The notes below the pieces were generated by a model. The model did not search any database, had not been told where the DNA came from, and worked only from the letters and a program-made list of their open reading frames with translations. Positions 10,451-27,759 of a stretch of 44,382 nt of DNA are shown here, piece after piece. Positions within the stretch are counted from its first letter, which is position 1. Each line of letters starts with the position of its first letter. Both the position numbers and the translations under genes were made by a program. The stretch comes from a virus (Duplodnaviria; Heunggongvirae; Uroviricota; Caudoviricetes): the IMG/VR virus record IMGVR_UViG_2740892015_000011, positions 1 to 44,382 of that record; one strand, written 5' to 3'.

Positions 10451-10453
10451 CGT

Positions 10454-11956
10454 TTAAGCTCCTGTTGATTCAGCCCGAGTGCGGAACTGATTGAGCAGCG
10501 CGAAAATGCGCAACTGGTTCATGAGGGTTCCCGGCCACAGCACATCGACGCGGTTCGGATTTTTGGCGTTCTGCTCGACGATGATATTTTTTGCGAATGC
10601 CTCCGCATCCTGCGCATAACCGTTCCATACCAGAGTCTGGTACTCGGCAATCTGATCGGCCTTGATAATGTTTGGCGTGACGATCGCCGCGCCAGGTGCA
10701 AATCGGGTTCCATCCGCAGCAAGCTTCATACGGCCAAACTTGCTGGTCACCGCTGTGCGCAGGTAGCGGGTCACAAACATCAGGCTGAACAGCGTCTCCA
10801 CTTCCAGATAACTGTCATCTGCATCGCCATAGCTGTTTTTCTGGTAGGTGGTGATCAGGTTTTCAATGCGCACCGTGCCATCGTCATCGACCGTAAATGT
10901 CGAAATGCCGCTGTACAGCAGATTGTTACGCTCGGTCAGCTCAAAGCGATCCTGCAGTTCTGGCGCAAGCACCCCCTGAACAGCGAGCGACTGTAGCGGG
11001 CGGCCGGGGTCATTACGCAGACTCACCGCAGCTGCGCCGGTGTAAGCTGCAGACCATGCCCAGGAAGGGGACGGCGATTTATTTACGCCCAGCAGGGTCT
11101 CATGCTGGTTATTGCGCAGCTCACCTTTGGTACCGAGCTGGGCGTAAGTCCCGGTGGTGGTACCAAAGGAATGGCCATAAAGCTGCTTGTCCCATGCCCA
11201 GCGACCGCCAGTGTCTGACAGGAACTCCTTCATCACATTCAACGAGGTTGTATCGTCGTAAGGGTTGATGATGAAATCGAATGTCCGATCCTGCAGGTTT
11301 GCCAGCGCGCCGGTAATATCCGGAGCCCCGACTCCGTTAGACATAGCAGTAATCGTCAGTTCCAGGCCTGCAGGTGTGGACTCGCCTCCAGGTAAGCCGA
11401 GGAAGTTCAGGCGAATGTCGATCCCATTACCCGTAGCACCAAGATTCTTCGCGGTCAGGGTTACGGTATCCGTAGTCGCACTGGCGGTTACAGGTAGCGT
11501 GGTTTTTGCGTTAATCGCCGCGGCCAGAGAGGTGGCGATCGCTGCCACCGTATCTGTTGCTACAACGGTCAACTGAATGCGCTCACCAGCAATATAAAGG
11601 GAGATCACTCCGGTTGCCGTCGGTGCGCTGCTCACTTTAATGGTGCCGGTTGCAGCCACCATGGAATCGGAGTCTTCCTCCAGCGGCAGGATCCAGACTT
11701 CGGCTGCGGTATCATTTTTCTGATACGCCGCCATCATGGCCTGCAGAATTCCCCCTTTTCCTGTCAGCTCACCGACGGTATCCGAAGAGGAAACTCGCTG
11801 CGGAATACCAGGGAGGGTTGAGCCGGTACTGAGCATCCCACCGATAAGCAGGGTGCGCTGCGTGGCAGTGGCGTTATTCGCCATTGAGTTATCAAACTCA
11901 ACGAAGAAAAGCCCTACCCGCAGGTTATCGGGAACACGAGCGAAAGGTACGGTCAT
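10454..11956 (-). CDS. Contractile tail sheath protein
   Basis: 500 aa; size and position upstream of the tube gene in a myovirus-type tail module. Confidence 0.75.
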   Translation of the reverse strand: MTVPFARVPDNLRVGLFFVEFDNSMANNATATQRTLLIGGMLSTGSTLPGIPQRVSSSDTVGELTGKGGILQAMMAAYQKNDTAAEVWILPLEEDSDSMVAATGTIKVSSAPTATGVISLYIAGERIQLTVVATDTVAAIATSLAAAINAKTTLPVTASATTDTVTLTAKNLGATGNGIDIRLNFLGLPGGESTPAGLELTITAMSNGVGAPDITGALANLQDRTFDFIINPYDDTTSLNVMKEFLSDTGGRWAWDKQLYGHSFGTTTGTYAQLGTKGELRNNQHETLLGVNKSPSPSWAWSAAYTGAAAVSLRNDPGRPLQSLAVQGVLAPELQDRFELTERNNLLYSGISTFTVDDDGTVRIENLITTYQKNSYGDADDSYLEVETLFSLMFVTRYLRTAVTSKFGRMKLAADGTRFAPGAAIVTPNIIKADQIAEYQTLVWNGYAQDAEAFAKNIIVEQNAKNPNRVDVLWPGTLMNQLRIFALLNQFRTRAESTGA

Positions 11957-12150
11957 TCATTTTCTCCCGCTTTTTTAGGTAATGATTGTTTCTCTGGCGC
12001 GCCCTCATCCTTTTTAGAGAGGATCACGTCCCCATCGCTCAGACGGCGACGCCAGAAAATATTGTCAGGTACTTCAGCACCCTCTTTAGGCAATGGGATG
12101 CCCTTGACGGGGCAGCGAACGCTGAGCCCGTTGTTCGGCTTAACAAACAT
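11953..12150 (-). CDS. Small phage protein preceding the sheath gene
   Basis: 65 aa, start/stop overlap with neighbours. Confidence 0.35.
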   Translation of the reverse strand: MFVKPNNGLSVRCPVKGIPLPKEGAEVPDNIFWRRRLSDGDVILSKKDEGAPEKQSLPKKAGENE

Positions 12151-12153
12151 GGA

Positions 12154-12699
12154 TTACTCCTGAAGATTGAGGCTGATACCCGGTTTAACTGTGCCGTCTG
12201 GCATGTCGACCGCAATATCCATGCCCTCAAGGGGAACCGACTGGACAGGATAAAAATCTTCCGGCCCCTGGTAATGCTCTATGTCGATCTCGAAAAGAAG
12301 CTGCCCCATATGGGCCTCTCCTTCTGAATCAACATTGATGGTTGAACGAACTTCCGCGTATTTCTGAATATTCCGCGTCAGTTCGTAGCTGTTGATCACC
12401 GCGCGCTCCACCTGCTCGCGAAGGCTTTCAAGCGCCAGCTCTGCCCGCATGGCTCCATCATCCACTGTATCGCCGTCATACTCCTGAACGCGCCCAGTGA
12501 TCCTGACAGTGGTGAGGGTGGTAAAAGCAGGGGTATTACGCCCCTGTGATTTTTTCTGTTCAAAAGGCGTCTGAACCAACAACACAGGATACATATCTGG
12601 TGAAGTTGACCAGTCGCGTGGAGAGAATACGCGGTCGCCCGCGCTGGTTGTCCCGGTTAGTGCAGTGACAACCATTTGCCGAATCGCTGCTGAATTCAT
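12154..12699 (-). CDS. Phage virion protein (tail completion / head-tail joining candidate)
   Basis: 181 aa between head and tail modules; assigned by position only. Confidence 0.35.
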   Translation of the reverse strand: MNSAAIRQMVVTALTGTTSAGDRVFSPRDWSTSPDMYPVLLVQTPFEQKKSQGRNTPAFTTLTTVRITGRVQEYDGDTVDDGAMRAELALESLREQVERAVINSYELTRNIQKYAEVRSTINVDSEGEAHMGQLLFEIDIEHYQGPEDFYPVQSVPLEGMDIAVDMPDGTVKPGISLNLQE

Positions 12700-13055
12700 C
12701 GCGGTTTTACCACATTGAGGACAAGACGAGATCCGCCATGACTGTCGGGTTCGACGTTTGACACAACAAATAACTGATTGATGATGTGACCACCGACCGT
12801 CTTTATAAATACCCGGTCAGATACAGCAGGTTGCGATTTACCCAGCTTGCGAAATTCAGCATCGCGCACACCCAACATCGGGCTGGAGGTGTTAATTTCT
12901 GAATCGCCATCAAGGTTTTCAGCAACCTGCGCATAACCACGGTCAAAAATCCCGTTAATTGTAAAAGGAGTACCGTTACGTGGACGGTACTCGTGCTCAT
13001 CGCCAAAGACATCATGCAGCGGACTCAGAAGATGAGAATCCCAGTCCACGCCCAT
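12696..13055 (-). CDS. Phage head-tail connector candidate
   Basis: ORF track 12696..13160; start moved to an internal Met (MGVDWDSHLL...) so it does not overlap the upstream gene. Confidence 0.3.
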   Translation of the reverse strand: MGVDWDSHLLSPLHDVFGDEHEYRPRNGTPFTINGIFDRGYAQVAENLDGDSEINTSSPMLGVRDAEFRKLGKSQPAVSDRVFIKTVGGHIINQLFVVSNVEPDSHGGSRLVLNVVKPR

Positions 13056-13059
13056 GTCA

Positions 13060-13440
13060 TTACCCTGTCGTAACTGAAACTGATGGCTGAGAAGCAAGAA
13101 CTCGCTTACGAAGCACATCAACATCAGCAATAACGCCGGACTGCAGAAGACGCTCAGCATCTTTGCCGGTTACAGGGATGCGCATATTTTCGCGGTACAT
13201 CTCCCCGTCATGACGAATGCAATTCCCTTTCAACACCACATACTCCTGCGATTCAGTGTCTCCGGATTTTTCGTCACCACCATCGTCATCAACAGACAAT
13301 TCGGCATCATCTGTTTTGCTCAAAGGCTGTTTTTCCTGGGTGTTATCGCCAGCATTCAGGTCGTCAACGCTCAGGCCGTCTTTGGCAGATCCTTCTGCAT
13401 TCAGATCATCAGCCAGCCCGGTATTAGGTTGTTTTGCCAT
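13060..13440 (-). CDS. Acidic phage protein downstream of the capsid gene (function unknown)
   Basis: ORF track 13060..13470; probable start MAKQPNTG... at 13440, just after the capsid stop. Confidence 0.3.
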   Translation of the reverse strand: MAKQPNTGLADDLNAEGSAKDGLSVDDLNAGDNTQEKQPLSKTDDAELSVDDDGGDEKSGDTESQEYVVLKGNCIRHDGEMYRENMRIPVTGKDAERLLQSGVIADVDVLRKRVLASQPSVSVTTG

Positions 13441-13441
13441 A

Positions 13442-14491
13442 TCAGACCACCGTTGCGCAGAGGGATGCATTTACCCGGCTCGGAATAACCAGCGGGGAGG
13501 ATTGCATCAGGATAAGACGCTGGGCTGGATCTTCTTTCACCCAGGATTTTGGCGCATAAGCCAGCGGACCGTAGTTGAAAGCCGGGTCCAGGATAACGCC
13601 AAAGGCGCGGGTACCCATCAGATCGGCACCACTCATAATGACAGCGCCATCGGGGATCATAGGCTTCTCGACGTTATCCAGCGGGTCAATAAACCAGTCG
13701 TTATATAACCAGAGGTCAAAGTTACCCCAGCGCCCTTTATAAATTGCGCCCTTCATTACCTGTGGGCCGGCGTTAATCTGGTTACCAAACGGGCTCAGCG
13801 CCGGGAATGTAATGGCATTATCCTTGATGGTGGTATCCAGTCGGAATGCACGCCATGACTTATTCGTAAAGACCAGATCCGTGGCGACAGAGCCGGACTC
13901 TTTCAGGAAAGTAGTCTGCCAGATTTCAATGTCATCTGATGGCTGGGTATTGGTAGCGCCAGCTGCAACGGTCAGTGGCCATTTATCCGAGCCGCTAAGA
14001 GTGATGGTCAGATCCGAAGCACGCCCGAAATCCACCACCTGAGTTTCATAGCCCTCCCCGGCGACGGTTACGGTCCCAGACACCAGCGCACTCGCCGCCA
14101 TCCATTCCAGACGACGGTTGATCATGTCAATCTGGTCAGTCATTTCAAACTGAAGGTTCAGCATTTCGCGCTCGGCAGCGGTATATTCCCCGCCAATACG
14201 CTCACCAATCTGGCGGCGGATAGGTTTGCGCAGGTCCGGCGCGCGCTTATCTTTGATGTATGCCGGTTTGAAGGTATTGGTCTGGTATTTACGGGATTCG
14301 ACCAGCTTACCTTCCACCAGCGGGGAGACGAACGGCGCCATACGACGCAGGCCGACATCAACATCAATCGCCACTTCTTCAGTCTCGTAAGTTACGACAT
14401 TCGGGAAGAAGCGATCGAGCAGCCAGTTCTGACTGGTTTTCAGGTTAGGAACAACCTGCACCAGCACGCTGGTATCAAAAATATTTTCCAT
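13442..14491 (-). CDS. Major capsid protein, lambda gpE-like
   Basis: C-terminal APKSWVKEDPAQRLILMQSSPLVIP and YKGRWGNFDLWLY resemble lambda E; probable start MENIFDTS... (ORF track extends to 14527). Confidence 0.75.
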   Translation of the reverse strand: MENIFDTSVLVQVVPNLKTSQNWLLDRFFPNVVTYETEEVAIDVDVGLRRMAPFVSPLVEGKLVESRKYQTNTFKPAYIKDKRAPDLRKPIRRQIGERIGGEYTAAEREMLNLQFEMTDQIDMINRRLEWMAASALVSGTVTVAGEGYETQVVDFGRASDLTITLSGSDKWPLTVAAGATNTQPSDDIEIWQTTFLKESGSVATDLVFTNKSWRAFRLDTTIKDNAITFPALSPFGNQINAGPQVMKGAIYKGRWGNFDLWLYNDWFIDPLDNVEKPMIPDGAVIMSGADLMGTRAFGVILDPAFNYGPLAYAPKSWVKEDPAQRLILMQSSPLVIPSRVNASLCATVV

Positions 14492-14588
14492 ATTCAGTCT
14501 CTTGATAGTGCCAGCCGCAGCTGGCAAAAAATTTAAACGAGCCAGCCCCTGCCGGTTAAAGCATTCGTCAGGAGAGCCGTGGGGGAAA

Positions 14589-14993
14589 TCAGGAGGTGGT
14601 TACAGGTGCCTGGTCACTGTCTTTCAGGAAGATAGCCAGCGGTCGGAGCGCTTTTTTCAGGTCAGCGGTCGTCCAGGAGTTATCAAAAATAATTCGGTGC
14701 TGGTTGAATTCCCCCATCAGATACAGGCCGCCGTTCTGATCGAAAGACGATGCATCAACATCATCAACCAGAATAGCAACGGGTAACTGACTGCCATCTT
14801 CAGCCGTTTTCACACATTGCGTGTATTTCCCGCTGGCAGCCACCAGGCCCAGGACAGTACCACGCTTAAAGGCACCGCCCGTAATGATCCCGGTGTCAGT
14901 CACCAGCTGGAGCGTGCCAGCGACAAGCTGATCCGGAACAAACAGCGCGCTCTTCATGCCAGGCGCAAACGCATTCTGACCAAACTGATCCAT
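14589..14993 (-). CDS. Head decoration protein, lambda gpD-like
   Basis: 134 aa between scaffold and capsid genes, the lambda D position. Confidence 0.55.
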   Translation of the reverse strand: MDQFGQNAFAPGMKSALFVPDQLVAGTLQLVTDTGIITGGAFKRGTVLGLVAASGKYTQCVKTAEDGSQLPVAILVDDVDASSFDQNGGLYLMGEFNQHRIIFDNSWTTADLKKALRPLAIFLKDSDQAPVTTS

Positions 14994-15583
14994 TATTTCT
15001 CTCCTCTTGTGGAGTTGTAGAGGCCGGTCATTTTACTTACCAGCGCAGACTTTCCGGTCTCTTTCTGTCCGCTATCCGGATTAAGCCGGACCTGGTGGCT
15101 TTCCTGCATACGCTGATCGAGAGAGCGTTTACGGGATGGCTGAGATGCGGCTGCGGCCGGAGCCGAAGAGGCTAGGACATTAATTGCTGCCGCAGAACTC
15201 ATCCCGGTATTGAAAGCCAGTGACGCGGCCAGTGAAGGATTCGCAGCTGCATGCTTACTGCCGAAAATACGGGCGCAGCGTTTACGCTCAGCAGCGCGTG
15301 CATTTTTTACCGCCTTACTCTCTTTGCGATCGTCGTCGCCGTCGTCTTCAGAATCATCATCTTCTGACGCATCCGGATCATCGCAGTCATCTTCAGCATC
15401 ATCGTCGCGTTCGTCTTCTTCCGCGTCGTCGTCGCGCTCATCATCATCGGCATCATCTTCGCGCTCATCCTCTTCCGCGCGACGGGCTTTCGCTTTTTTG
15501 GCTTTTTTATCCTCTTCTTCCTCAGAAGCGGAAGGGCCAAGACCAATGAGGTGAGCAAAACTAAACGTCTTTTTCTTTGCCAT
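14993..15583 (-). CDS. Scaffold-like acidic protein (lambda Nu3-like)
   Basis: Start MAKKKTFSF... preceded by AGGAG; long Asp/Glu repeat (DDADDDERDDDAEEDERDDDAEDD); sits between protease and decoration genes. Confidence 0.5.
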   Translation of the reverse strand: MAKKKTFSFAHLIGLGPSASEEEEDKKAKKAKARRAEEDEREDDADDDERDDDAEEDERDDDAEDDCDDPDASEDDDSEDDGDDDRKESKAVKNARAAERKRCARIFGSKHAAANPSLAASLAFNTGMSSAAAINVLASSAPAAAASQPSRKRSLDQRMQESHQVRLNPDSGQKETGKSALVSKMTGLYNSTRGEK

Positions 15584-15584
15584 T

Positions 15585-16451
15585 TCAGGCTCCTGTTTTT
15601 TCAAGTAAGTTTTTGAACGCAGCGTCAGGAGGACACACCTCATCAGCCAGTCCAATTTCAACGCCATCAGCAGCCATAAAACAGGCGGCCTGGGTACTTT
15701 TTATAACCTTTGCGCTAATCCCCCGGTTTCTGGCAACAGTGTTCACAAACAATTCGCCCATGGTGTTAATGTCCTGCTGGATGGCGGCCAGCGCTTCATC
15801 TGACAACTCTCTCAGCGGCGAACCTTCAGCCTTGCGGGATCCATAGGTGATGATCGTAACTTTAAGACCGTCATCTTTAATCCGCTGCGTCCAGTCAAGG
15901 TGCATGGTGATCACACCCACAGAACCCACTCCGCCGGTGCGCGGAACAGAAATCCGGTCCGCTGCACTGGCAATGGCATACGCAGCGGAATAAGCGCTTT
16001 CCGTCAGAATGGCATGGATAGGCTTTTTCCCCCGGGAGCCGTAAATGACATCAACCAGATCGAAGCATCCAGCGACCTCGCCGCCGGGTGAGTCGATATC
16101 CAGGCAAATGCCCGAAATGTCGGGATCTTCCATCGCAGTAAGAAACGCCTGACGAATGCCGTCATACCCTGTCATTCCACTGTACGGACGCAGACTGCCC
16201 AGTTTTTGCACCAGCGTTCCGCATATCGGGATGACGGCGACACCCAGCACATTGTCATAACCCGGATCACTACGGGATTCACGTCCCCGGTTATCGTCAT
16301 ATCCGTACCAGTCATCCTCCATGGCAAGAGAAGATTCGATTTTACTGATACCAAATCGGTCCATTACGGATGCCATGATGACTTCGGCTTTACTCGGGTG
16401 CAGCGCCAGCGGGGTGTTAAATAATCGCTGGGCCAGATGGGGTAGATTCAC
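15585..16451 (-). CDS. Head maturation protease, S49 (lambda gpC / SppA-like) family
   Basis: 288 aa, immediately after the portal gene with an ATGA overlap. Confidence 0.75.
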   Translation of the reverse strand: MNLPHLAQRLFNTPLALHPSKAEVIMASVMDRFGISKIESSLAMEDDWYGYDDNRGRESRSDPGYDNVLGVAVIPICGTLVQKLGSLRPYSGMTGYDGIRQAFLTAMEDPDISGICLDIDSPGGEVAGCFDLVDVIYGSRGKKPIHAILTESAYSAAYAIASAADRISVPRTGGVGSVGVITMHLDWTQRIKDDGLKVTIITYGSRKAEGSPLRELSDEALAAIQQDINTMGELFVNTVARNRGISAKVIKSTQAACFMAADGVEIGLADEVCPPDAAFKNLLEKTGA

Positions 16452-18085
16452 TTTTCCTCCGGATCGGTAATGGTCTGGCTCGCAAACTGGTCAGCCTGTG
16501 CCCAGCTCGGAAGCGGTAATCCGCGTTTAAGACATGACTCAATTTCTCTCTGGCGCTGATCAAGCACTTCTTCCCAGTCTTCACCGACGTTTTCACCCAC
16601 CTCAATCTCGAGGGTGGAAAGTCCGGCATCCAGACCAAGAATGGCGCCTTTTTTCTCTGCAACCGGATCCACCCAGCCGCGCCCTGGCCCCATCCAGCGC
16701 GCGCGAGAATACGCGGCTCTGGCGTCAACAAAATCAGGTGCGCCTGCGGGCAGGGGTAAATCCTCATTGTCGTGAACTTCTTCAACAAAGGCGGTGAGAA
16801 TGGGCTGAGCGAAGCCGGTAGAAAAATCGTCCCGGCGGCGAGTCAGTGTTTTCCATGCCTCCAGCAACGAGGAGCGTGCAGAACTGTAGTTAACGTCAGA
16901 CCAGTCCTGGGTGACCTGCTGTGGGGACAACCCTGTTCCTGAAGAAAAATTACGGAGAACAGCAGATTCGAAGACTTCAAAATTGCTGTAGGGCCGCGCC
17001 GCGTTAACCGTCGTGATTTTCTCACCAGGATAAAGAATGGGCATTCGGGCACCATTCTGAAGTGTCAGACGCCGATCGTTATGGAACTCAACACGCCCGT
17101 CCTGATAAGTGCCTAACTCCGACTCGTCATAGGTCTCGCCCAGGGCAGACTGAACCATCGCAGGGTCATAGGGTGACTCAATGTAAGCGGCGAATATGGC
17201 ATTAAGAATTGCTGCCTCAAGCTCACTCTGGTCATACTTCACCAGCATTTTCAGACGCTGAATAACCGGAGTCAGGATGCCGTTACCGCGGTGCTGCGCG
17301 CCACGCTCATGATCAAAATCGTGAACCACATGCGGGCGGCCCCAGTCAGTTTCACGCGGGATACGCTGCCACGTCATGGTTTTAGCCCCGCTCCACCAGT
17401 CACCGATATGGGCCTCCCTGATGTGGTAAGCAACCGGCGCACCGTCCGCATCAATTTCAACGCCACCACGGACATTTGGCATATCGAAATTCTGCTGAGG
17501 ATTACTGAGGCGGTCAGGATCGACAATCTGTACCGTGGTGGCGTAACGCCCTCTTCCGGGACCAAGCCTGTCAGTTCTGTACTGGAGAATGGCCAGAGCA
17601 TCCCCGTCAATAAGCTTGTGACGAAATCCCAGGCGCAACATCTGCGACACGGTGAGTTTTCGTTCAACATCACAATACCGGCCAGGATCGTTACTCCAGG
17701 TCCGCCAGTGCCCGTCCAGTGCTTTTCCGTACTCTTCCGCCCAGGACGCATCAAACGCCTTGTTTCCGGTGATCATTCTGAGAACACGGTAATCGGGTTT
17801 CATGATGGGGCGGAAGTTGGCACCAACCGCATTATCCAGCAGACGTGTGACCGCACCGTTTGCCCAGCCGTCATTACGGACCAGATCGCGTGCGCGGGAC
17901 ACGATGCGATCCCGGTAAATGTTAATTTCATTGTCCGGGGACCACAGCGCGGGTTGCCAGTTCGCCAGTTGATCGCTGAAAGAGTCAGCTGCGTCATAAG
18001 GTACGCGGCTCCCCCCCACCAGCATAGAGGGACGCTGCTGTCGCAACGGCTGCCCATCAGAGCCCAGTATCTGTACTTTATTCAT
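16448..18085 (-). CDS. Portal protein, lambda gpB family
   Basis: 545 aa between the gpW-like and protease genes. Confidence 0.8.
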   Translation of the reverse strand: MNKVQILGSDGQPLRQQRPSMLVGGSRVPYDAADSFSDQLANWQPALWSPDNEINIYRDRIVSRARDLVRNDGWANGAVTRLLDNAVGANFRPIMKPDYRVLRMITGNKAFDASWAEEYGKALDGHWRTWSNDPGRYCDVERKLTVSQMLRLGFRHKLIDGDALAILQYRTDRLGPGRGRYATTVQIVDPDRLSNPQQNFDMPNVRGGVEIDADGAPVAYHIREAHIGDWWSGAKTMTWQRIPRETDWGRPHVVHDFDHERGAQHRGNGILTPVIQRLKMLVKYDQSELEAAILNAIFAAYIESPYDPAMVQSALGETYDESELGTYQDGRVEFHNDRRLTLQNGARMPILYPGEKITTVNAARPYSNFEVFESAVLRNFSSGTGLSPQQVTQDWSDVNYSSARSSLLEAWKTLTRRRDDFSTGFAQPILTAFVEEVHDNEDLPLPAGAPDFVDARAAYSRARWMGPGRGWVDPVAEKKGAILGLDAGLSTLEIEVGENVGEDWEEVLDQRQREIESCLKRGLPLPSWAQADQFASQTITDPEEK

Positions 18086-18348
18086 CAGAATCTAAACCTC
18101 GCTGGTTTCCGGGGACGAGAGATAATCCCCAGTTGCGCCTGCAGAAGTTGAATCAGGGCCAGCAGATCAGCCAGGGTGCTTTGCTGATAGGACACTGATC
18201 GCGTCCCGTCTCCCTGCGTATAGGAAAACGAAACACCGTGGCTCCCGGTTGCTAAATCAATGTACGCCTGCTGAGCTTTCGCAAGCGCATCCCTGAGCTG
18301 ATCGTCAGTCATTGCGCCGGCAAGCAGGCTGGTGTTCCGGTTGAACAT
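18085..18348 (-). CDS. Head-tail joining protein, gpW-like
   Basis: 87 aa between terminase large subunit and portal, the lambda W position. Confidence 0.55.
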   Translation of the reverse strand: MFNRNTSLLAGAMTDDQLRDALAKAQQAYIDLATGSHGVSFSYTQGDGTRSVSYQQSTLADLLALIQLLQAQLGIISRPRKPARFRF

Positions 18349-18356
18349 GATTTTCC

Positions 18357-20486
18357 TTATTTCGGCAGGAGTTGCGATATTCGCTTACGTTTGACCGGCG
18401 CTGGTTCTTCAATAACCGCACCCGGCAGCTCGTAATTGATTTTTTCTTCCTGTCCAACTGGCGCTGGCAGGAACTTATCCGGATCGGCTTCGAGGTTGGC
18501 GGCCCGGACGTTGAGTTTTAACCCCATATGTTTGAGACCGCACAGCGCGGCATAGCTGTAAACGAGGCAGTCAAGCGCTTCGTTAGCTCGTCCTGGTATT
18601 GCTTCCCAGATACTGTACCGCTGCCCGGAAATGACTTTGTAAACCAGTCGCTCCGCCAGCAGCTGATTGAAGTACCCGAGATCGCGATCGTCAGGAAAAT
18701 GCATATAACCCGCAGCGGCGGCGCCAGGTTTGGGTGGCTCAAGATGCAGGCGACCGCGTATCACGTCTTTCGCTGAGTTAACCCCCAGAATGACAGGGCG
18801 GAAACTGGCTTTGCTTTTCGATGATGGTCGTTTGGTCGGCCAGACAGGATTGCGTTTGCCTCCCTGTGCAGACTCCCCCTTAATTGCCCAGACACGACGG
18901 CCAAGACGCTCTTTGGCGAATTCGTATACCTTCTGCGTATGGTGGCCGCCGGAGTCCATGCACGTTGCCATGATATTCAGGCCGCGCCCGTCACCACGTC
19001 GCCAGATCTGTTTCAGGTATGCATCCAGTCGCTTCCAGGGTTCTTCCGTCTCAAGGTCACCATAAATAACGTCATGCGCGACCGACCACGATTCTTCATC
19101 TCTCCCCCAGCCGGTGATCGTAATTTCGAAGCGATCGTCCTGGGTATCAACTCCAGCTGTTAACAATGCCACCCCGTCCGGAACGACGGCCGGAAATATT
19201 TCCCGGCGCGCCAGCAGAACATCAACAGGGAGCTGTTTCCCATGATTAGGTCGGTGCGGAAGCCCCATCTGGGTATTCCACCACGCCTGTTCCTTATCCG
19301 GATCGCCCTTCGCATCGATATATTTTTTCGCAATATCCGACGGCTTATCTTTTTGCCAGGGGCTGAAAAGCTTGGATGCCTGGTACCCCGCGTGGTGGTT
19401 ATCGACTGCCTCCTTTCCACAGGAGGGGCAGATTGCGCGATAGACCGCATGCCGTTCCGACTCTGACCATTGCCAGACCTTTTCAACGCTGCCCTCGTCT
19501 GCCGCCCGCCAGGCAAGGTCATAATCCATCAGCGGTGAGTGCCGCTCCCCGCAGCACTCAAATGGGCGCGTCTGATGCCATCGAATAGTGTGCAGAGCTC
19601 TGAGGCGCTGTCCTTCGGACCAGCCACTACCACAGCATTCGCAATAGAGCATCGCCGATTTAGTCAGGTGTTTATCTCCCTCTTTCGGCCACTGAACGTG
19701 TTTGAAAAAGTCGGGGAACTGGCGGTGGCCACAGTGCGGGCAAACCACAGATGCCCGGCGCTGATCGGAGTCGGCGTAGCTGTCAGCAATGCGGCTCTCA
19801 TCCTCCACCGTCGGCGAACAGGCGCGTACAGACAGCCAGGTCAGGCCAAATGTCGCTGTACGCTCTTCGGCCAGCGCAATTGGATCGCCTTCGCGGGTTA
19901 TCGGGTACTTGTCCACTTCATCCGCCAGCAGGACACGAATCGGACGACGCGCAAGGTTATCAGGGCTACCAGCACCCGCCAGCGCCAGAAATCCGCCAGT
20001 GAATGCCTTGTAAAGAATGGTTTCTTTCGAGCTTTTCTGTTTCGAATCACCGATGATTTTACGCAGTACCGGCGTCACCCTTACCAGCGGGCTAATACGC
20101 TCTTTCGAAAACTGTTCAGCGGCTTCTTCTTTCGGCTGCAGCAGCAGTATCGGACAAGGATCGAGGTGGGCAAAATAGCCAAAAAGGTTTTCCAGCAGTG
20201 CTGTCTTCATCAACTGGGTACAGCACATTACAGTGATGATATGAACCCCGGACTCCGTCGCGGCAAGCATCGGTCCGCGGGCAATTTCTACCGTCGATGT
20301 TTCCCAGTTTCCCGAAGTGCTCCCAGCCTCTTTTGCCAGCTTACGATAGTCATCTGCCCACTGCGGCACACTGATACGCGGCGGGGGTGTCCAGCCTTTG
20401 CGGACGCTTAATTCAAGACGCTCAATCTTCTGCCGGGTTAAACTCTGGCTCTCCGAGGACTGAGATGTGTTTGTGGACATGTTCAA
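18357..20486 (-). CDS. Terminase large subunit (lambda gpA-like)
   Basis: 709 aa downstream of the small subunit; true start may be a few codons inside the overlap with the small-subunit gene. Confidence 0.85.
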   Translation of the reverse strand: MNMSTNTSQSSESQSLTRQKIERLELSVRKGWTPPPRISVPQWADDYRKLAKEAGSTSGNWETSTVEIARGPMLAATESGVHIITVMCCTQLMKTALLENLFGYFAHLDPCPILLLQPKEEAAEQFSKERISPLVRVTPVLRKIIGDSKQKSSKETILYKAFTGGFLALAGAGSPDNLARRPIRVLLADEVDKYPITREGDPIALAEERTATFGLTWLSVRACSPTVEDESRIADSYADSDQRRASVVCPHCGHRQFPDFFKHVQWPKEGDKHLTKSAMLYCECCGSGWSEGQRLRALHTIRWHQTRPFECCGERHSPLMDYDLAWRAADEGSVEKVWQWSESERHAVYRAICPSCGKEAVDNHHAGYQASKLFSPWQKDKPSDIAKKYIDAKGDPDKEQAWWNTQMGLPHRPNHGKQLPVDVLLARREIFPAVVPDGVALLTAGVDTQDDRFEITITGWGRDEESWSVAHDVIYGDLETEEPWKRLDAYLKQIWRRGDGRGLNIMATCMDSGGHHTQKVYEFAKERLGRRVWAIKGESAQGGKRNPVWPTKRPSSKSKASFRPVILGVNSAKDVIRGRLHLEPPKPGAAAAGYMHFPDDRDLGYFNQLLAERLVYKVISGQRYSIWEAIPGRANEALDCLVYSYAALCGLKHMGLKLNVRAANLEADPDKFLPAPVGQEEKINYELPGAVIEEPAPVKRKRISQLLPK

Positions 20487-20991
20487 TCAGCACCTCTGTC
20501 ATCCTGTCCGCCGGTACATCCAGATCAGCAGCCATTAGCGGCGCCACCCTGGACGGCCAGTTAAGCCAGGCATCACGCTGTTGGCGAAAGGCGTTGAATA
20601 AAACCTCCTCGGCTGCTGTCAGCTCAATAAGCTGGCCGCTGTCTTTTTCATACTGCAGCTTTGCCTGCAGGGCCATGTAATTCTCGCGGATACGTCCCGC
20701 TTCCTCTCTCGAAAGATCTGCCCCTTCAGTGAGCATTATCTGGCGGACAGTTTTATTGATTTCATCACCGTCATCATCGTTATCGCTAACGACGGGAGTT
20801 TTCTTTTTCTTCGCGTTCGAGGCGCGCGGGTCTTTGCCATCGCGGTTTTTCTTCAATGCCGCATCGCTGGCCTCTACGTCAATCAGGTCTCCGTCCATCA
20901 CAATGAAGCGCCCGGCTTTAATCCACCGACCAATTGTTTTGCGATCCACACCTGAATGTTGTGCGTACTGACTCTGGTTCATCGTGGTCAT
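20422..20991 (-). CDS. Terminase small subunit (Nu1-like)
   Basis: 189 aa, N-terminal HTH-like region (YAQHSGVDRKTIGRWIKAG); immediately downstream of the GGGACAT repeat array. Confidence 0.6.
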   Translation of the reverse strand: MTTMNQSQYAQHSGVDRKTIGRWIKAGRFIVMDGDLIDVEASDAALKKNRDGKDPRASNAKKKKTPVVSDNDDDGDEINKTVRQIMLTEGADLSREEAGRIRENYMALQAKLQYEKDSGQLIELTAAEEVLFNAFRQQRDAWLNWPSRVAPLMAADLDVPADRMTEVLIEHVHKHISVLGEPEFNPAED

Positions 20992-21139
20992 GGGACATCA
21001 CCTGGGACATTTTCTGGGGTGGGACATTCGCCTGGGACATTTTTGCCATGTCCCACCAGAATGTCCCACTGGAATAAACTGGAATAGCCAGAGCTGGCGA
21101 GGTGTCCGTAATGATCGCCAGAGGTGGGACATGGGACAC
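20992..21139. repeat. cosB-like array of GGGACAT / ATGTCCC repeats (candidate terminase small-subunit binding sites)
   Basis: GGGACAT direct copies at about 20992, 21004, 21021, 21034, 21126 plus GGGACAC at 21133; inverted ATGTCCC at 21047 and 21061; begins at the terminase small-subunit start codon. Confidence 0.5.
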
Positions 21140-21281
21140 AAATCTGAAAGTTGTAGCTAGGAAAACACCGCGGCGCGCAATGCCCGTACCTTACAAAAGT
21201 CTCAGGAAGGACCCATTTTTTTAATGGCTTCGACCATTCGCTCCGACTATGATTATTCCTATTCAATACAAGGAGAATGTA

Positions 21282-21785
21282 ATGGGTAACAATATAATCA
21301 AAATAACTTTCGTAGCCGCAGTGCTGGCATCACCAATTGCTCATGCCCAGTGGGTAACTAATACTGAAGATGACCTTTTCTCTGGTGGTAAGAAAGCAAT
21401 GATGCTTGGCGAGGTTTCATCCGACAATGGCGCCATTGTGTTTGACTGCACTAAAGAAAAGCTATCGGCGGCATACGTTGAAATGGATAAAAGCACCGAA
21501 TCACTATCAGAGGTACCAATGGACCTGATAATGAAGGTCGACGGGAATACCGCAGTGAAGCTCGATGCTACCCTTTCAAGACGTAATGTTCAGAGCCTCC
21601 AGATTCAATCGGATGACGCGGACCAACTAAAAACAGTGCTTAAGCAGCTTCAGGGGGCGAAATCCAAAGTGTTAGTTGGTGTGCAAACAAAGGATGGCGG
21701 AAACCAGCATTCCATGTCAGCCAATGTTTCTGGATCGACAACTGCAGTAAACAGCTTCATAAAAGCTTGCGAAATTAACTTATAA
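21282..21785 (+). CDS. Secreted (signal-peptide) protein of unknown function; moron candidate
   Basis: AAGGAG RBS then MGNNIIKITFVAAVLASPIAHA-QW... (signal peptide with AHA cleavage motif); opposite strand to the late operon; AT-rich. Confidence 0.5.
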   Translation: MGNNIIKITFVAAVLASPIAHAQWVTNTEDDLFSGGKKAMMLGEVSSDNGAIVFDCTKEKLSAAYVEMDKSTESLSEVPMDLIMKVDGNTAVKLDATLSRRNVQSLQIQSDDADQLKTVLKQLQGAKSKVLVGVQTKDGGNQHSMSANVSGSTTAVNSFIKACEINL

Positions 21786-21795
21786 GTTACTGCTT

Positions 21796-22434
21796 TTATT
21801 TTGCCGTCCTGATGGCTTCTGCTATCGCCTGATTTAAAGCAGACGGTAGCAGTGCGTTCGCCATGGTACGGGCCCTATCCATATACCCCAGCACTGGAGT
21901 CACAGGTAGCGCATCACCAAACCGGATCAAAAGCTTTGGAGAACGCTGTTTGCGTTTCGGTCTTCGCGTCCCGTTAGCGGAACGTTTGGCCCGTCGCTTC
22001 TTAGCTTTCATCGGCTTCTTACGCTGCCAGACAGCGTTAACGCCATCAACCTCACCTACGAATACATTTTCCTTTGCTTTAAGCTGTGAGAGCTTATTAC
22101 GCGGCAGGTTGCCGTATTTATTAAGCTTTATGTCTTTCGGGTTAAGCAAAGCACTACCATTAAGCTTGTGCTCTCCGCCGAACTCGAAGGGTTCAAGGTA
22201 ACCAGCAGCAGTATCACGAACAAACACCTTCGCACGAAGGCTGTTTTTCCTGGCACCAACTGACCCAACCGATTTAACTGTAAAAGGTGTTGGATTATCC
22301 AGATGCCGCTCAAATGCTGTTCTTTGGGCTGACTCAATCTGGCGAACAACTTTAGTCATCGCCTGGGCAGTCGCAAACGGTATCTGCTTCTGCAACTGCC
22401 TTAACTGACTGGAAAGGTCTTTAAGCGTCGCCAT
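21796..22434 (-). CDS. Hypothetical basic phage protein
   Basis: ORF track 21796..22470; probable start MATLKDLSS...; Lys/Arg-rich tract KKPMKAKKRRAKRSANGTRRPKRKQRSPK. Confidence 0.35.
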   Translation of the reverse strand: MATLKDLSSQLRQLQKQIPFATAQAMTKVVRQIESAQRTAFERHLDNPTPFTVKSVGSVGARKNSLRAKVFVRDTAAGYLEPFEFGGEHKLNGSALLNPKDIKLNKYGNLPRNKLSQLKAKENVFVGEVDGVNAVWQRKKPMKAKKRRAKRSANGTRRPKRKQRSPKLLIRFGDALPVTPVLGYMDRARTMANALLPSALNQAIAEAIRTAK

Positions 22435-22515
22435 AACAGTCTCCGTAAGTATTGCCATTATCAAACCCACCTGTAGGTGGGCTTTGTAATGGCTATTTAT
22501 TCAGGAATGATCCGA

Positions 22516-22776
22516 TTAACCCACCACCGGCCCGGATGTACTCGTTGCTGTTGAGGCCGGTGCAGCTGCTGCATCTGTCTGGATTTGCTTAAGTCGGACC
22601 TGAACCAGCTCTTCCACTTTATCGGCTTCTGCTTTTGCTGCAGCAGCTGCCTCTTCCGCTTTCGCCAGGGCGTGGGCTTTGAACCAGTCACGGATTTTTA
22701 CCCAGCCGCCGGCGATGAGCAGAAACGCACTGGTCCCCGCAGAAAAATAGAGCAGAACACTATCAAAGAACGTCAT
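22516..22776 (-). CDS. Small membrane protein in the lysis cassette
   Basis: 86 aa, N-terminal hydrophobic segment then Ala-rich helix; ATGA overlap with the upstream gene. Confidence 0.3.
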   Translation of the reverse strand: MTFFDSVLLYFSAGTSAFLLIAGGWVKIRDWFKAHALAKAEEAAAAAKAEADKVEELVQVRLKQIQTDAAAAPASTATSTSGPVVG

Positions 22777-23321
22777 TTTGTTTTTCCTTGCCTGAGTTGT
22801 TCGGCCTGCCGTATGGCGGCCAGTTGATTGTTAGCTTTCTCGATTCCAGCCAACAGCGGTTCTATCCAGAGAACGGTCTGACAGTACGTCAGTTGGCCGG
22901 GGGAAGTGGCGCTATTACCGCCTTTGTCAGCTCCGGCGGTAGCGGTGTGCATTGCGCTGGCACGTAGACTGTTCGTGTAGTTGAGCAGCCCGTTAGCGAT
23001 ATGAGCAGGCACAGGGTAATCACATGTTTTTTCACGGCGGAGTATCTCGCGATATTCAATGACGGTGGTTTCCGCTTTGGCGTCTACCGCGGCGTTATCA
23101 TCCACGGTGCCGGTGGCCATCGCACTGAATGCCTGGCTTTCGGCTGCCTGCTGCTGAATGACTTTTGCCTGCATCAGGACATTCGCATCAGCAATATCAG
23201 CACGACTGCTGTTACTCGCGTAGCGGGATCCAAAAAATAATCCAAGCCCTGCCACCAGCAGGATCAGGAATATGATGATGGTGGCGCGCGTTTCGGCAGT
23301 CACTGGTCTATCCCCCAGCAC
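22773..23321 (-). CDS. Rz-like i-spanin candidate
   Basis: 182 aa, N-terminal transmembrane helix (IIIFLILLVAGLGLFF) then helical periplasmic region; directly after the endolysin; GTG start. Confidence 0.4.
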   Translation of the reverse strand: MLGDRPVTAETRATIIIFLILLVAGLGLFFGSRYASNSSRADIADANVLMQAKVIQQQAAESQAFSAMATGTVDDNAAVDAKAETTVIEYREILRREKTCDYPVPAHIANGLLNYTNSLRASAMHTATAGADKGGNSATSPGQLTYCQTVLWIEPLLAGIEKANNQLAAIRQAEQLRQGKTK

Positions 23322-23839
23322 GCCAGCGCGCTTTCCTGGTCACGCCGCTCTATCTGACCGTAGCAGCCATTCTTCTGGCCTTTGGTCAGACGGCAGTCAC
23401 GCCCACCGTCTTTAATCCACCAGCGGATGGCCTCACAAGCTCCTTTCCGGTCACCAGCATTGATGCGCTGGTAGAATGTCGATGGATAGCATTTCCCTGG
23501 GCCAATGTTGTACGGGCAGAAGGATGCAATGCCTACCTTTTGCGGCGCTGTCAGTGGGACCTTGATATTCCGATCTACCCAGGCAAGCGCTTTGTCACGC
23601 TCAATCGCGTTCACTTTCTTGCATTGCGCCTCGGTGGTGGTCATGTCTTTTACAACACGTTTGCCATCGATAACTGTAACGCCATGGCAAAGCGACCAGA
23701 CGCCACCTGGATCCATGACAGCCACAAGAGCGTTGCCCTCCTTCTCACTGATGAATTGATCGAACAGTACAGGAGCTGAAGCACCAGCGGCGATCAGGGA
23801 TAGCATGGCTGCGCTGAGTTTGGTTTTTGTAGATGCCAT
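23300..23839 (-). CDS. SAR endolysin (phage-21 R-type lysozyme)
   Basis: N-terminal signal-anchor LSAAMLSLIAAGASAPVL; ...GDRKGACEAIRWW... resembles P21 R (GDIKGACDQLRRW). Confidence 0.75.
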   Translation of the reverse strand: MASTKTKLSAAMLSLIAAGASAPVLFDQFISEKEGNALVAVMDPGGVWSLCHGVTVIDGKRVVKDMTTTEAQCKKVNAIERDKALAWVDRNIKVPLTAPQKVGIASFCPYNIGPGKCYPSTFYQRINAGDRKGACEAIRWWIKDGGRDCRLTKGQKNGCYGQIERRDQESALACWGIDQ

Positions 23840-24154: not shown

Positions 24155-25207
24155 TTATTCCCCTGCCAACGCCCGTATTTCCCCCAACGTCTGATTAAAC
24201 CTTTCCTCTTCGAGTTCAACGCCAATAGCCTGGCGGCCAAGTTCCAGCGCGACTTTCACGGTCGAACCGGACCCCATAAAGAAATCAGCCACCACATCAC
24301 CAGGCTTACTGCTGGCGTTGATGATCTGCCGCAACATGTCAGCGGGTTTTTCGCATGGGTGTTTACCTGGGTAAAACTGAACGGGTTTATGTGTCCAGAC
24401 GTCGGTATAAGGAACGGATACGGAAACAGAGAAATGCCGCCGAAGTGATTTGTACTCTTCGAGCAGCTCTGAATATTTGCGATTCAACGAATGCCACAGA
24501 GCCACCAGCTGGTGGTGTGGTGTTGCCAGTTCGCCGTTCTGGTGTTTTTCGATGGCTACCTGCGTGAAAAGGGACTGAAGATTCCGGTAGTCTGATTCAT
24601 TCGGTAATTGCCACTGGCTACCGCTGAACCAGTGAGACACCATGTTCTTCTTTCCAGTCGCATCGGCTATTTGTTTTGAGGTTATGCCAAGCGCTTCACG
24701 TGCATCCCGGAAATAAGAAATTAGGGGAGTCATTACATGCTGCTTCAGCTCGCTTCCCTTCTCAGCGTACCCGTCGCTCTTTGGTTTATACGGCCCCTGG
24801 TAATGCTCAGCGAACAGGATGCGCTCTGTTGCAGGGAAGTAAGAGCGCAGGCTCTCTTTATTACAGCCATTCCAGCGGCCCGACGGTTTAGCCCAGATGA
24901 TGTGGTTCAGGACGTTGAACCGCTCACGCATCATGATCTCAATGTCTGCCGCCAGACGGTGACCTGAGAAAAGATAAAGACTGCCGGCAGGTTTAAGCAC
25001 TCGCCAGAATTGTGCGAGGCACATATCAAGCCAGCGAAGATAATCCTCATCCCCTTTCCATTGATTGTCCCAGCCGTTGGGTTTCACTTTGAAGTAAGGC
25101 GGATCCGTGACTATCAGGTCAATGGAGTTATCAGGGAGAGTTGCGATGTATTGCAGGCTATCAGCGTTGACTAACTCAACACTGTTTATAATTACAGTAT
25201 TTTTCAT
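24155..25207 (-). CDS. DNA methyltransferase, amino-methyltransferase beta class (N6-adenine or N4-cytosine), orphan
   Basis: DPPY motif near the N-terminus (LIVTDPPYF) and motif I near the C-terminus (DFFMGSGST); no adjacent restriction gene. Confidence 0.75.
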   Translation of the reverse strand: MKNTVIINSVELVNADSLQYIATLPDNSIDLIVTDPPYFKVKPNGWDNQWKGDEDYLRWLDMCLAQFWRVLKPAGSLYLFSGHRLAADIEIMMRERFNVLNHIIWAKPSGRWNGCNKESLRSYFPATERILFAEHYQGPYKPKSDGYAEKGSELKQHVMTPLISYFRDAREALGITSKQIADATGKKNMVSHWFSGSQWQLPNESDYRNLQSLFTQVAIEKHQNGELATPHHQLVALWHSLNRKYSELLEEYKSLRRHFSVSVSVPYTDVWTHKPVQFYPGKHPCEKPADMLRQIINASSKPGDVVADFFMGSGSTVKVALELGRQAIGVELEEERFNQTLGEIRALAGE

Positions 25208-25373
25208 AGATCAGTAAGCGTAACTCTGATAGGCTCACTATGCTTTTGCGCTAAAGCGGTGGGCCTTGGTTAGCTTGTGACCTGAAAGCATGAGCTGATG
25301 GCTGGTGGGTGCTCCAACATCCACCAGCCGCCCATTTTCACAGCAAAATACCTCCGAAATGGAGGTGCGAAGG

Positions 25374-25400
25374 CATAAAAAAACCCCGCTTAAGCGAGGT
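25374..25400 (-). terminator. Rho-independent terminator downstream of the two-gene cassette
   Basis: Minus strand reads CCTCGC-TTAA-GCGGGG followed by TTTTTTT. Confidence 0.45.
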
Positions 25401-25416
25401 TATTTCGAATAGATAA

Positions 25417-25821
25417 TCAAGCAGCAGGTTCGGATGGATAAACCTGCTTATACATCTGCTGAAGGGTGTCAATAGCTTTGTTAGCCATTATCAATATAGC
25501 TTCCGCATCAGCCTTACTTAAAGTTCTATCAAGCTCGTAATCTGCCCATTTACGTCGGATATGCAAATGTCTCAGCATTGTTCCCATAGAAATGAGTTTC
25601 ATTTTTTCAAACGGCTCATTTCCTTTTAACCATGCATCATTTGTAAGATAGTCGCGAACAGCTTGGTGTGACGACTTGTTTGGGCATTTCTCAAGCTTAT
25701 CAAGCGTTTCATGATAAACTCCATAATACGCTCGACCAATGGCGTTTCTGTAACCGATTTCATCGTTGTGAGAAATGCATTTACCAGCAAAAACAATAAA
25801 ATCTTTCCCCGATACGCTCAT
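25417..25821 (-). CDS. Unknown protein B of AT-rich cargo cassette (134 aa)
   Basis: Start ATG overlaps the stop of gene A (TGATG); contains RAYYGVYH, which fits the Rx4-6H pattern of HEPN nucleases only at its upper limit (Rx6H) and at an unusual N-terminal position (not verified); AT-rich. Confidence 0.5.
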   Translation of the reverse strand: MSVSGKDFIVFAGKCISHNDEIGYRNAIGRAYYGVYHETLDKLEKCPNKSSHQAVRDYLTNDAWLKGNEPFEKMKLISMGTMLRHLHIRRKWADYELDRTLSKADAEAILIMANKAIDTLQQMYKQVYPSEPAA

Positions 25822-26576
25822 CAGTAAATCCCTCTTTTTTCATCGCTTTGGAACCAGGATGTAAAAGGGCTGTTCCGATAACTATCATCTGAGAGCAAAA
25901 CCAACAGTTCCATGTTCATTTCAGCTAAAACCTGCGGATCAGCAGTTTGGGCTCTAACGATGAATGCATTGTCATCATCTCCACCAAGATAATAGCTAAC
26001 ACTTGAACAGTTAATACCGCGCTTGTTCGCAATCTCTTCAGCTTGATCGCAAAGGGCTTCTAGTTCTCGAGAAGAAAGACGGGTAGCGTTTTTGAAATCA
26101 ACAATCTGTTCAGCCATATAATTTCCCTGATTGATTATATCCTCTCGCTCTTGGCCATCATAAAGAGCAGCCATTTTGAGGGAGAACTTTTTAACCAACT
26201 TGTCGTTGCCGATACAAAATGCAGCGTTTCTTGCTACAAGCCTCAGTTCATGTGAAGGGAAAAGCTCAACTATTCTAAACAACTCAACGCGATGCTCATA
26301 GTTATGAGCCGAACGAGAAAGATACGCCAAGTAGTTTTGTGCGATCGTTGGACTCCCAGAGCTCATCGCGTCTTTGAATAAACGTACTGCATCAGAGTGA
26401 CGCCCGAGAGTTCCATTAAGCCATGCATACGCATGTGCGCGCTCACTTATTGGAAGTTTAGCAATGTCGTGCTCAATTTCCGCAATAGTGTCTGTATCCG
26501 GGACTTCTCCCTTCTGGAAGTAATCGAGGATTGTTGCAAGCAGTTCTTGTTCTTTTGACTCAGGCTGTCCTGACAT
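25821..26576 (-). CDS. Unknown protein A of AT-rich cargo cassette (about 251 aa)
   Basis: ORF track start at 26597 is a TTG; first ATG (MSGQPESKEQ...) at 26576; no recognisable catalytic motif; translationally coupled to gene B. Confidence 0.5.
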   Translation of the reverse strand: MSGQPESKEQELLATILDYFQKGEVPDTDTIAEIEHDIAKLPISERAHAYAWLNGTLGRHSDAVRLFKDAMSSGSPTIAQNYLAYLSRSAHNYEHRVELFRIVELFPSHELRLVARNAAFCIGNDKLVKKFSLKMAALYDGQEREDIINQGNYMAEQIVDFKNATRLSSRELEALCDQAEEIANKRGINCSSVSYYLGGDDDNAFIVRAQTADPQVLAEMNMELLVLLSDDSYRNSPFTSWFQSDEKRGIY

Positions 26577-26919
26577 AATTTTCCCGAAGAAAACCAAATT
26601 CTGTATGTTTTCAATAGCTTCACTGGATAGGTTTTTATATTGCTGTCATCAGTATTGAAGCTTTTACGGGATTGTACAGGACCATCAGCGTTCTACTTGT
26701 GCATAAGAATTTAATAAACCTACAGACTTATCCACAGAAAAAAGAGTTATCAACAAAAAAAGTTATTCACAACTTAACTAATAGCAAAATATTGTTGATA
26801 AGCTGTGCGTAATTATCATATCCATCAAACTTACGCACATTAGAGCCTTGTGTTGCCTATCCATCGTTTTTTCCTATCAAAACGAAACAACATGCTTTTC
26901 TGCGATTAAAAAAGTATTC

Positions 26920-27045: not shown

Positions 27046-27759
27046 TCACATTTCTACCACTTTAACTTCCTCATACTCTTCGTACCGCGCCAGGCTTTCA
27101 CATAACGCCAGGCTGTCCATTTCCACGAAAGCTGCTTTAAATGCTGCCCAGTGAGCAGCGTATACCCTAAGCCAGGTTGAACGCTCCACGCTCACCATGC
27201 GGGCCAGTGCCGCCCCCGCATACTCCTGGTACGTATCGTTATTGCGTGATGCAGCAACTTCCTGGGCCGCGAGCCAAACCAGCCCCACTAATTTTTTTGT
27301 GACTCTGTCCTGGAGCTTCTTACTCCCCTGCTGATGCTGAAACTGTGCCCAAACGTACTGGCACATTAAGGTCTGGTACCGGAAAGACAGATCATATCCA
27401 TAGCAATACCGAACCCACGCCTGCAGATGCTCTCCAAGTCCATTCACCGAGCGGCGCCACGCAGAACTCGCAAACTCGGCATCCTTCATAGGGGGTAATG
27501 GGCGTCTACGGCTTCTTGTCTCCAGAACATAAAGCGGAGTGGCCAGCGTTTTTACAACCTTCGCTCCACAACATTCCCCACCCTCCATGACTATTTCTGG
27601 ATGGTGCCGGGGATACTTATTTTTATCTGCTGGTGGATGCTCACTGAACGCCTGCAGCTGTCCCTTCGTCGATCCTGAGAAATCGGCCAGCGCGCGGCGC
27701 AATTCAATACGGGTATATTCGAGTTCTTGTAAATTCATAATGCTCAGCGCTCCATACAA
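27046..27759 (-). CDS. Late-gene antitermination protein Q candidate
   Basis: 237 aa, last regulatory-region gene before the terminator and lysis genes; assignment is positional. Confidence 0.4.
   Translation of the reverse strand: MYGALSIMNLQELEYTRIELRRALADFSGSTKGQLQAFSEHPPADKNKYPRHHPEIVMEGGECCGAKVVKTLATPLYVLETRSRRRPLPPMKDAEFASSAWRRSVNGLGEHLQAWVRYCYGYDLSFRYQTLMCQYVWAQFQHQQGSKKLQDRVTKKLVGLVWLAAQEVAASRNNDTYQEYAGAALARMVSVERSTWLRVYAAHWAAFKAAFVEMDSLALCESLARYEEYEEVKVVEM

Follow-up and report, generated by a model that had tools for sequence, protein, structure and literature searches.

The gene at positions 21282 to 21785 (plus strand) of the viral record IMGVR_UViG_2740892015_000011, a member of the Caudoviricetes whose 44,382 nucleotides were analysed in full and are called the window in the following, is probably a moron, that is, a self-contained piece of cargo inserted between the cos region and the last late gene on the lysis side, antisense to the late operon. 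We favor this interpretation because the insert is present, absent or replaced at the very same junction in related phages, because the gene occurs in several other contexts and because its GC content is low in each of them. A deviant GC content together with an own promoter and terminator are described traits of morons (PMC3594210). Judged from its sequence, the product is predicted to be a soluble periplasmic protein, and a role in lysogenic conversion or in exclusion is plausible. The parts of the insert are as follows:

21216..21795, plus strand: cargo insert (putative moron unit) of 580 bp with a GC content of 0.434, comprising a promoter-like region, a ribosome-binding site, the coding sequence and a 10-bp trailer
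21248..21253, plus strand: candidate -10 hexamer TATGAT (5/6 match to TATAAT), an inferred promoter element whose position is kept among alleles
21270..21275, plus strand: Shine-Dalgarno sequence AAGGAG, read in the sequence 6 nt 5' of ATG 21282
21282..21785, plus strand: coding sequence of 167 amino acids plus stop codon, PHROG 19473 (hidden Markov model match, RefSeq coding sequence, homologue lengths, purifying selection)
21282..21347, plus strand: predicted signal peptide of 22 amino acids with basic n-region, hydrophobic core and AHA, cleavage before Q23-W24 (rule-based check)
21348..21782, plus strand: mature protein of 145 amino acids with beta strands and two helices

The borders of the insert were obtained by alignment to relatives in which the site is empty. 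Homology to four such relatives (L110, L112, L118 and L132) ends at position 21215 and resumes at 21797 in L110 and L118, where only about 15 bp lie between the junctions; the insert junctions are 21215/21216 and 21795/21796. The GC content of the insert (0.434) is below the values of about 0.52-0.55 around it. For a broader comparison, 80 viral contigs were gathered from IMG/VR by means of the convergent late gene at the right border, which encodes a protein of 224 amino acids, and the 76 contigs that also possess the gene of the small terminase subunit TerS were sorted by the gap between these two genes. The gene of the secreted protein is present in 35 of the 76 loci (gap of 805-858 bp), the site is empty in 29 (240-252 bp), and the remaining 12 contain other small inserts at the same junction. 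Three loci (L103, L106 and L144) carry alternative cargo at identical borders, encoding proteins of 94 amino acids (PHROG 8894, with a weak GhoS-like match), 90 amino acids (PHROG 36812) and 117 amino acids (no family match). As the same borders enclose this gene, a different insert or nothing, the cos-side junction is evidently a hot spot for cargo. We also considered the 224-amino-acid gene as a conserved partner of the cargo gene and rejected it: it accompanies all cos-side copies, but it is equally often found without the cargo gene and therefore belongs to the phage backbone.

Members of the same family are found in at least five other genomic contexts. In Mu-like prophages, which reside at different sites of the E. 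coli chromosome, the gene follows com-mom and is the last gene at the right end; this copy is 63% identical and is carried by five complete genomes. In Mu-type tail modules it lies between the tape-measure and DNA-circularisation genes. Some other phages carry it immediately before the tape-measure gene, where a Doc-like toxin moron and further small exported proteins are its neighbours, and in still others it separates the lysis genes from an unrelated HNH/Terminase_4 packaging module. Wherever a tail module could be recognised in a phage context, the tail is contractile. Plainly chromosomal copies without any phage surroundings occur in Leminorella (flanked by a cobW-family gene and a LysR regulator), in a recA-alaS interval and elsewhere, and one copy is located on a Pantoea megaplasmid. 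The GC content of the gene is below that of its flanks in all eight other contexts that we checked (0.33-0.51 compared to 0.52-0.63). A remnant of the 224-amino-acid gene was looked for beside the Mu-like copy and is absent; the contexts share only the coding sequence and not the flanks. It is evident from these comparisons that the gene has moved between several positions in phage genomes and bacterial chromosomes. Identical or almost identical versions of the moron occur in Kluyvera, Citrobacter, Enterobacter and E. coli; the region around it was detected in 48 of 5,426 complete E. coli genomes. Neither a megablast search with the region nor a tblastn search with the protein gave a match to an isolated phage among 50,697 phage records, so that, as far as these searches go, prophages and viral contigs are its only known phage sources. 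As a side observation, the homologues upstream of the tape-measure gene are part of small moron islands (L073, positions 5441-5920; L074, positions 4970-6854), one of which holds a Doc/Fic-like toxin gene, while the other holds genes for a probable small lipoprotein, an unclassified protein of 163 amino acids whose N-terminal part has hydrophobic stretches, and another secreted protein.

The initial annotation had described an open reading frame at 21249..21785, which is indeed present on the plus strand. Its start at ATG 21249, giving a reading of 178 amino acids, turned out to be an unsupported extension by 11 codons and was ruled out: RefSeq annotates the equivalent 504-nt coding sequence in a 98% identical E. 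coli prophage (WP_016237001.1, 'hypothetical protein'), and the counterpart of ATG 21249 is missing or out of frame in other alleles. Nearly all homologues have a length of 163-169 amino acids, and other alleles keep the Shine-Dalgarno sequence AAGGAG or AAGGGG, so that ATG 21282 is almost certainly the true start. Among seven alleles from different contexts, the proportion of differing nonsynonymous sites (pN, 0.20-0.37) is far below that of synonymous sites (pS, 0.68-0.91, which is near saturation), and dN/dS amounts to about 0.12-0.20 where dS is computable. On the basis of these values, the gene is clearly real, beyond chance, and under purifying selection. The AT-richness reported earlier was borne out as well, since the gene has a GC content of 0.446, whereas the late region has 0.523 and the neighbouring genes have 0.49-0.555.

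A classical signal peptide in front of a mature protein of about 145 amino acids had likewise been proposed, and we arrived at the same result: MGNNIIKITFVAAVLASPIAHA is followed by QW, and the mature protein comprises 145 amino acids (15.5 kDa, acidic, pI 4.95). Signal peptides were assessed in 118 family members by a rule-based check that covered the n-region, the h-region and a c-region with small residues in positions -3 and -1. A hydrophobic core is present in 117 of the 118 sequences and a basic n-region in 114, and an AXA-type site is found 0-2 residues before an invariant tryptophan in 116 of them. The same rule-based check revealed a lipobox in none of the 118 members, the cleavage motif of the window protein being AHA|Q. 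The alignment of these sequences keeps Trp24 and Cys56 throughout and Cys163 almost throughout, and the two cysteines presumably form a disulfide bond. Because of the signal peptide without a lipobox and the conserved pair of cysteines, the family members are predicted to be exported via Sec with cleavage by signal peptidase I, to be soluble and, probably, to be disulfide-bonded.

The family is large and without an assigned function. PHROG 19473, which the window protein matches over its entire length (E=1.6e-99, positions 1-167 of 167), has no functional annotation, and searches of Pfam, NCBIfam, PADLOC and the sequences in the PDB gave no significant match. The sole Pfam matches at E values up to 1, DUF7767 (0.03) and Rho_GDI (0.11), are noise, as is an NCBIfam match to SigF, and the sequences of solved structures gave only chance-level matches, no matter whether the protein, the family profile or a distant relative was used as query. 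Close homologues fall into 33 clusters, the named ones of which all belong to the Enterobacterales. A profile search of 1.84 billion representatives yielded 269 clusters at E ≤ 0.001, mostly of 160-175 amino acids, and the family therefore comprises at least 269 clusters at 50% identity. Few members are fused or repeated, for instance one with three copies of the domain (P0178). Named members include proteins from Yersinia, Trabulsiella, Morganella, Acidiphilium and Mesorhizobium.

The confident AlphaFold2 model of the protein (mean predicted local distance difference test, pLDDT, of 86; predicted template modelling score, pTM, of 0.79) consists of ten beta strands and two helices, with pLDDT values below 50 for residues 1-20. 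No entry of the PDB was matched by Foldseek at an E value of 0.001 or better. The best fold match, a distant one, is the invasion-associated protein IalB. We did not read the model as a lipid-binding fold, as the matches to TEAD, MD-1 and the GM2 activator reach template modelling (TM) scores of only 0.2-0.3. Among the viral models of BFVD, similar folds were found in uncharacterised proteins of the lytic T4-like phages KP15, RB16 and VH7D (E values of 1e-5 to 1e-4, TM-score of about 0.5). A bridge to IalB at the level of sequence was sought and failed: the window protein does not match PF06776, only one of the 57 scanned sequences (the window protein and 56 relatives), the distant relative P0066, touches this model with 18.7 bits and thus below the cut-off of 22.1 bits, and profile searches with alignments of 118 and 18 sequences returned no protein with an IalB domain. 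No IalB-annotated protein was recovered in any of the sequence searches. Since this sequence link fails, the modelled protein might be called similar in fold to IalB and to the N-terminal domain of MotY, but not a member of the IalB family. The second assignment refers to chain A of PDB entry 8Z5N, which, judged from its chain length, should be MotY.

How the gene could serve a lysogen can be outlined as follows. A weak sigma-70 promoter of its own, with the -10 element TATGAT at 21248-21253, would drive the cargo gene, so that the lysogen could produce the protein at a time when the late operon is not expressed. Its precursor would be exported by Sec and cleaved after AHA22, the disulfide bond C56-C163 would form in the exported protein, and the acidic, beta-rich protein of 15.5 kDa would remain soluble in the periplasm and bind a component of the envelope. 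The proposed binding is suggested by the fold relatives, since IalB and the N-terminal domain of MotY are proteins of the envelope or periplasm and the latter acts via protein contacts, as described for this periplasmic domain (bioRxiv 10.64898/2025.12.04.692373). Regarding the promoter, nearly all cos-side alleles have TATGAT, TATCAT or TATATT upstream of the ATG, with the first base of the hexamer at a distance of 32-34 nt; for the chromosomal Leminorella copy and two alleles whose proteins are 39-40% identical, this distance is 37-41 nt. Otherwise the upstream regions of the alleles can barely be aligned. TATGAT is thus probably the -10 element, with a transcription start near position 21260. 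A hairpin followed by a run of T was seen by eye after the gene in two alleles (L006 and L014).

As to the benefit, we tentatively propose a protection of the lysogen's envelope against incoming attack, most probably the exclusion of superinfecting phages at the periplasmic stage, and regard this as the most likely one. The gene occupies sites where exclusion morons are located, e.g. that of HK97 gene 15; the similar folds in lytic phages and the contractile tails of the phage contexts also argue for exclusion. Several observations weigh against a moron with such a function. Many relatives are chromosomal and not linked to phages, which speaks against a purely phage-directed role. All named members are annotated as 'hypothetical', and no member of the family has been assigned a target or a phenotype, and the PADLOC match of the window protein to a Type I specificity subunit is at chance level (E 0.007, 13 bits). 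A strict sigma-70 scan found no promoter site, and no conserved or convincing -35 element was seen; since the -35 region is not conserved, the promoter would be weak or activator-dependent. Finally, an intrinsic terminator is absent from positions 21786-21795, which precede the convergent gene of the window. That the protein is a phage-borne member of a widespread, unnamed periplasmic domain family without a Pfam model and acts as a new soluble factor for exclusion or envelope protection, binding to a structure of the envelope or to a tail component of the incoming phage, is an idea that we regard as doubtful.

The chromosomal homologues outside of phages, which are spread across gamma- and alphaproteobacteria, are in favor of a rival explanation in which the protein has no anti-phage function but benefits the host bacterium in envelope fitness or virulence, as a lysogenic-conversion factor whose target is the bacterial envelope or a eukaryotic host, in the manner of the periplasmic SodC of Gifsy-2 or of IalB from Bartonella. 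This explanation, which we consider nearly as likely as the protection against incoming attack, also draws on the position and orientation shared with bor of phage lambda, on the one distant relative that touches the Pfam model of IalB and on IalB as the best fold match, an exported protein associated with invasion (PMC6299047). However, the window protein itself fails this model, the molecular mechanism of IalB is not known (PMC6299047), and the presence of family members in the free-living genera Acidiphilium and Mesorhizobium makes a role specific to animal virulence unlikely. Ecotin and lysozyme inhibitors are small, disulfide-bonded proteins of the periplasm, a description that also fits the window protein if its disulfide bond is real, and it might accordingly inhibit a protease or lysozyme and shield the cell or an infecting phage from a periplasmic hydrolase. 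A homologue from Mesorhizobium (P0197, in L157, positions 1-7200) lies among four genes for trypsin-like serine proteases and adjoins a caspase-family gene; this neighbourhood is the only hint at a functional partner for the family. It is, however, a single genomic association without support from the fold, no protease gene is present in the other chromosomal contexts and there is no Pfam match to inhibitor families, so that an inhibitor seems very unlikely to us.

A function in the lytic cycle itself, as a tail component, a lysis regulator or another accessory protein of morphogenesis or lysis rather than as cargo, appears most improbable of all. It is true that the gene adjoins the lysis cassette in the window, that it lies inside the tail module and on the late strand in some phages and that Foldseek finds the similar predicted folds in KP15, RB16 and VH7D. 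Nevertheless, a structural or lytic role is unlikely because a cleaved Sec signal peptide, as predicted here, would be incompatible with virion assembly in the cytoplasm, because the gene is absent in 41 of 76 close relatives that keep all of the flanking late genes and because it is not always found at the same place with respect to the lysis genes. In the window it is furthermore antisense to the late operon. The initial annotation had named homology to a virion structural protein as an observation that would speak against a conversion factor, and none was found: there is no match to a structural or lysis family in PHROG or Pfam, and the viral fold matches are uncharacterised proteins.

The moron lies in a prophage with a lambdoid early region, a Q antiterminator (27046-27759), head and terminase genes of the lambda type and a Mu-type contractile tail. 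The late genes run on the minus strand and the cargo gene on the plus strand, and the positional inferences drawn earlier from the sequence hold, i.e. an antisense gene within the late operon at a bor-like place between cos and the lysis genes. The accompanying statement that it is the only plus-strand gene does not apply to the late region as a whole, since a cassette for an alternative tail-fibre tip and chaperone is located on the plus strand at 4-1067. From the tail-fibre cassette up to the lysis genes, the annotation by the Prokaryotic Genome Annotation Pipeline (PGAP) shows no other plus-strand gene in L001, a near-identical prophage that is collinear with the window at 1815-7387 and 7991-23839. 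The local order is TerL, TerS, TGGGACAT repeats, cos-proximal element, cargo gene (plus strand), 224-amino-acid gene, DUF1378, Rz-like spanin, lysozyme and holin, with the following flanking features:

18357-20486, minus strand: large terminase subunit TerL
20422-20991, minus strand: small terminase subunit TerS
20991..21138, no strand assigned: eight TGGGACAT repeats in both orientations directly upstream of the TerS start, kept in empty-site relatives
about 21170..21215, no strand assigned: conserved cos-proximal element GCGGCGCGCAATGCCCGTACCTTACAAAAGTCTCAGGAAGGACCCA, which ends in GGACCCA and forms the left border of the insert
21796..22470, minus strand: convergent late gene of 224 amino acids, PHROG 1924 'minor tail protein', with its stop codon as the insert's right border

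By analogy to cosB of lambda, the TGGGACAT repeats are probably binding sites of TerS, and since the empty-site relatives retain this stretch, it is part of the phage backbone and not of the cargo. The cos-proximal element is 92% identical to that of L012, although the product of the adjacent gene is only 63% identical. An element of about 45 bp (GCGCGCAATGCCCGT..CTTACAAAAG..CAGGAAGGACCCA) is kept in the empty-site relatives, and the same element adjoins the unrelated packaging module with HNH endonuclease and Terminase_4 small subunit in L056 and L058 (about 5880-5930). It may represent a cosN/cosQ common to two types of terminase or be carried along with the cargo site. The 224-amino-acid protein has no Pfam match, and the C-terminal third includes a highly basic segment (KKPMKAKKRRAKRSANGTRRPKRKQRSPK); a tail protein would not be expected to be encoded at this place, with the lysis genes on one side and cos on the other.

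Further regions of the window are also of interest with respect to variable genes. At its beginning there are two opposed sets for tail-fibre tip and chaperone (4-465 and 465-1067 on the plus strand, 1039-1479 and 1482-2099 on the minus strand), and by analogy to the G segment of Mu the arrangement at 4-1479 suggests an invertible host-range segment. A gap of 340 bp with a low GC content (7388-7729) separates the DNA-circularisation and tape-measure genes and holds an open reading frame for 48 hydrophobic amino acids (7449-7595, minus strand); at the same junction, other phages carry homologues of the secreted protein and L001 a hypothetical gene of 735 bp. Between Q and the holin gene lie a DNA methyltransferase gene (24155-25207, minus strand) and two genes of unknown function on the minus strand (25417-25821, PHROG 5176; 25821-26597, PHROG 17809), the latter two in a stretch of low GC content (0.35-0.44). 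The region 24155-26597, at the position of the toxin genes in Shiga toxin (Stx) phages, is probably another cargo island.

Prophage morons are a main source of functions for lysogenic conversion and phage exclusion. The cargo gene described here is common in prophages of the Enterobacteriaceae, and its hot spot offers natural controls with an empty site or with alternative cargo. If a phenotype is found, this would provide a function for an unannotated periplasmic family with many chromosomal members and might also illuminate the IalB fold, for which no mechanism is known; without a phenotype, the gene is one more hypothetical moron and an ordinary kind of prophage cargo.

The comparison with known systems reveals different degrees of likeness. 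The protein shares with the N-terminal domain of MotY, which is part of the flagellar T-ring, its predicted periplasmic location, but the two are only 9% identical, an OmpA-like C-terminal domain is lacking and no flagellar gene is found nearby. It resembles IalB of Bartonella henselae (PF06776; PDB 3DTD) in its size, its signal peptide and a beta-rich domain with two helices, whereas the identity is 13% and the window protein and its relatives stay below the Pfam threshold.

The Bor protein of phage lambda is an outer-membrane lipoprotein that confers serum resistance. The parallel to bor drawn in the initial annotation is sound with regard to the position between the lysis genes and cos and to the antisense orientation, which we take to match the lambda map, and the product is exported in both cases if our prediction is correct. 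It does not extend to the protein: there is no sequence similarity (no Pfam match to Bor), and the window protein lacks a lipobox and is therefore predicted to be soluble and not a lipoprotein. With 145 amino acids, the mature protein is presumably also larger than Bor.

Morons were defined for HK97 and HK022 by Juhala and Hendrix. Unlike those morons (PMC3594210), the gene of the window has no recognisable terminator there, and its promoter is only inferred. They have the following points in common: the gene forms a discrete insert of lower GC content, which close relatives lack at this junction, it is situated inside the late operon with a ribosome-binding site of its own and a promoter-like -10 hexamer, and members of its family also occur at other known moron spots, including the one beside the tape-measure gene that is occupied by gene 15 in HK97.
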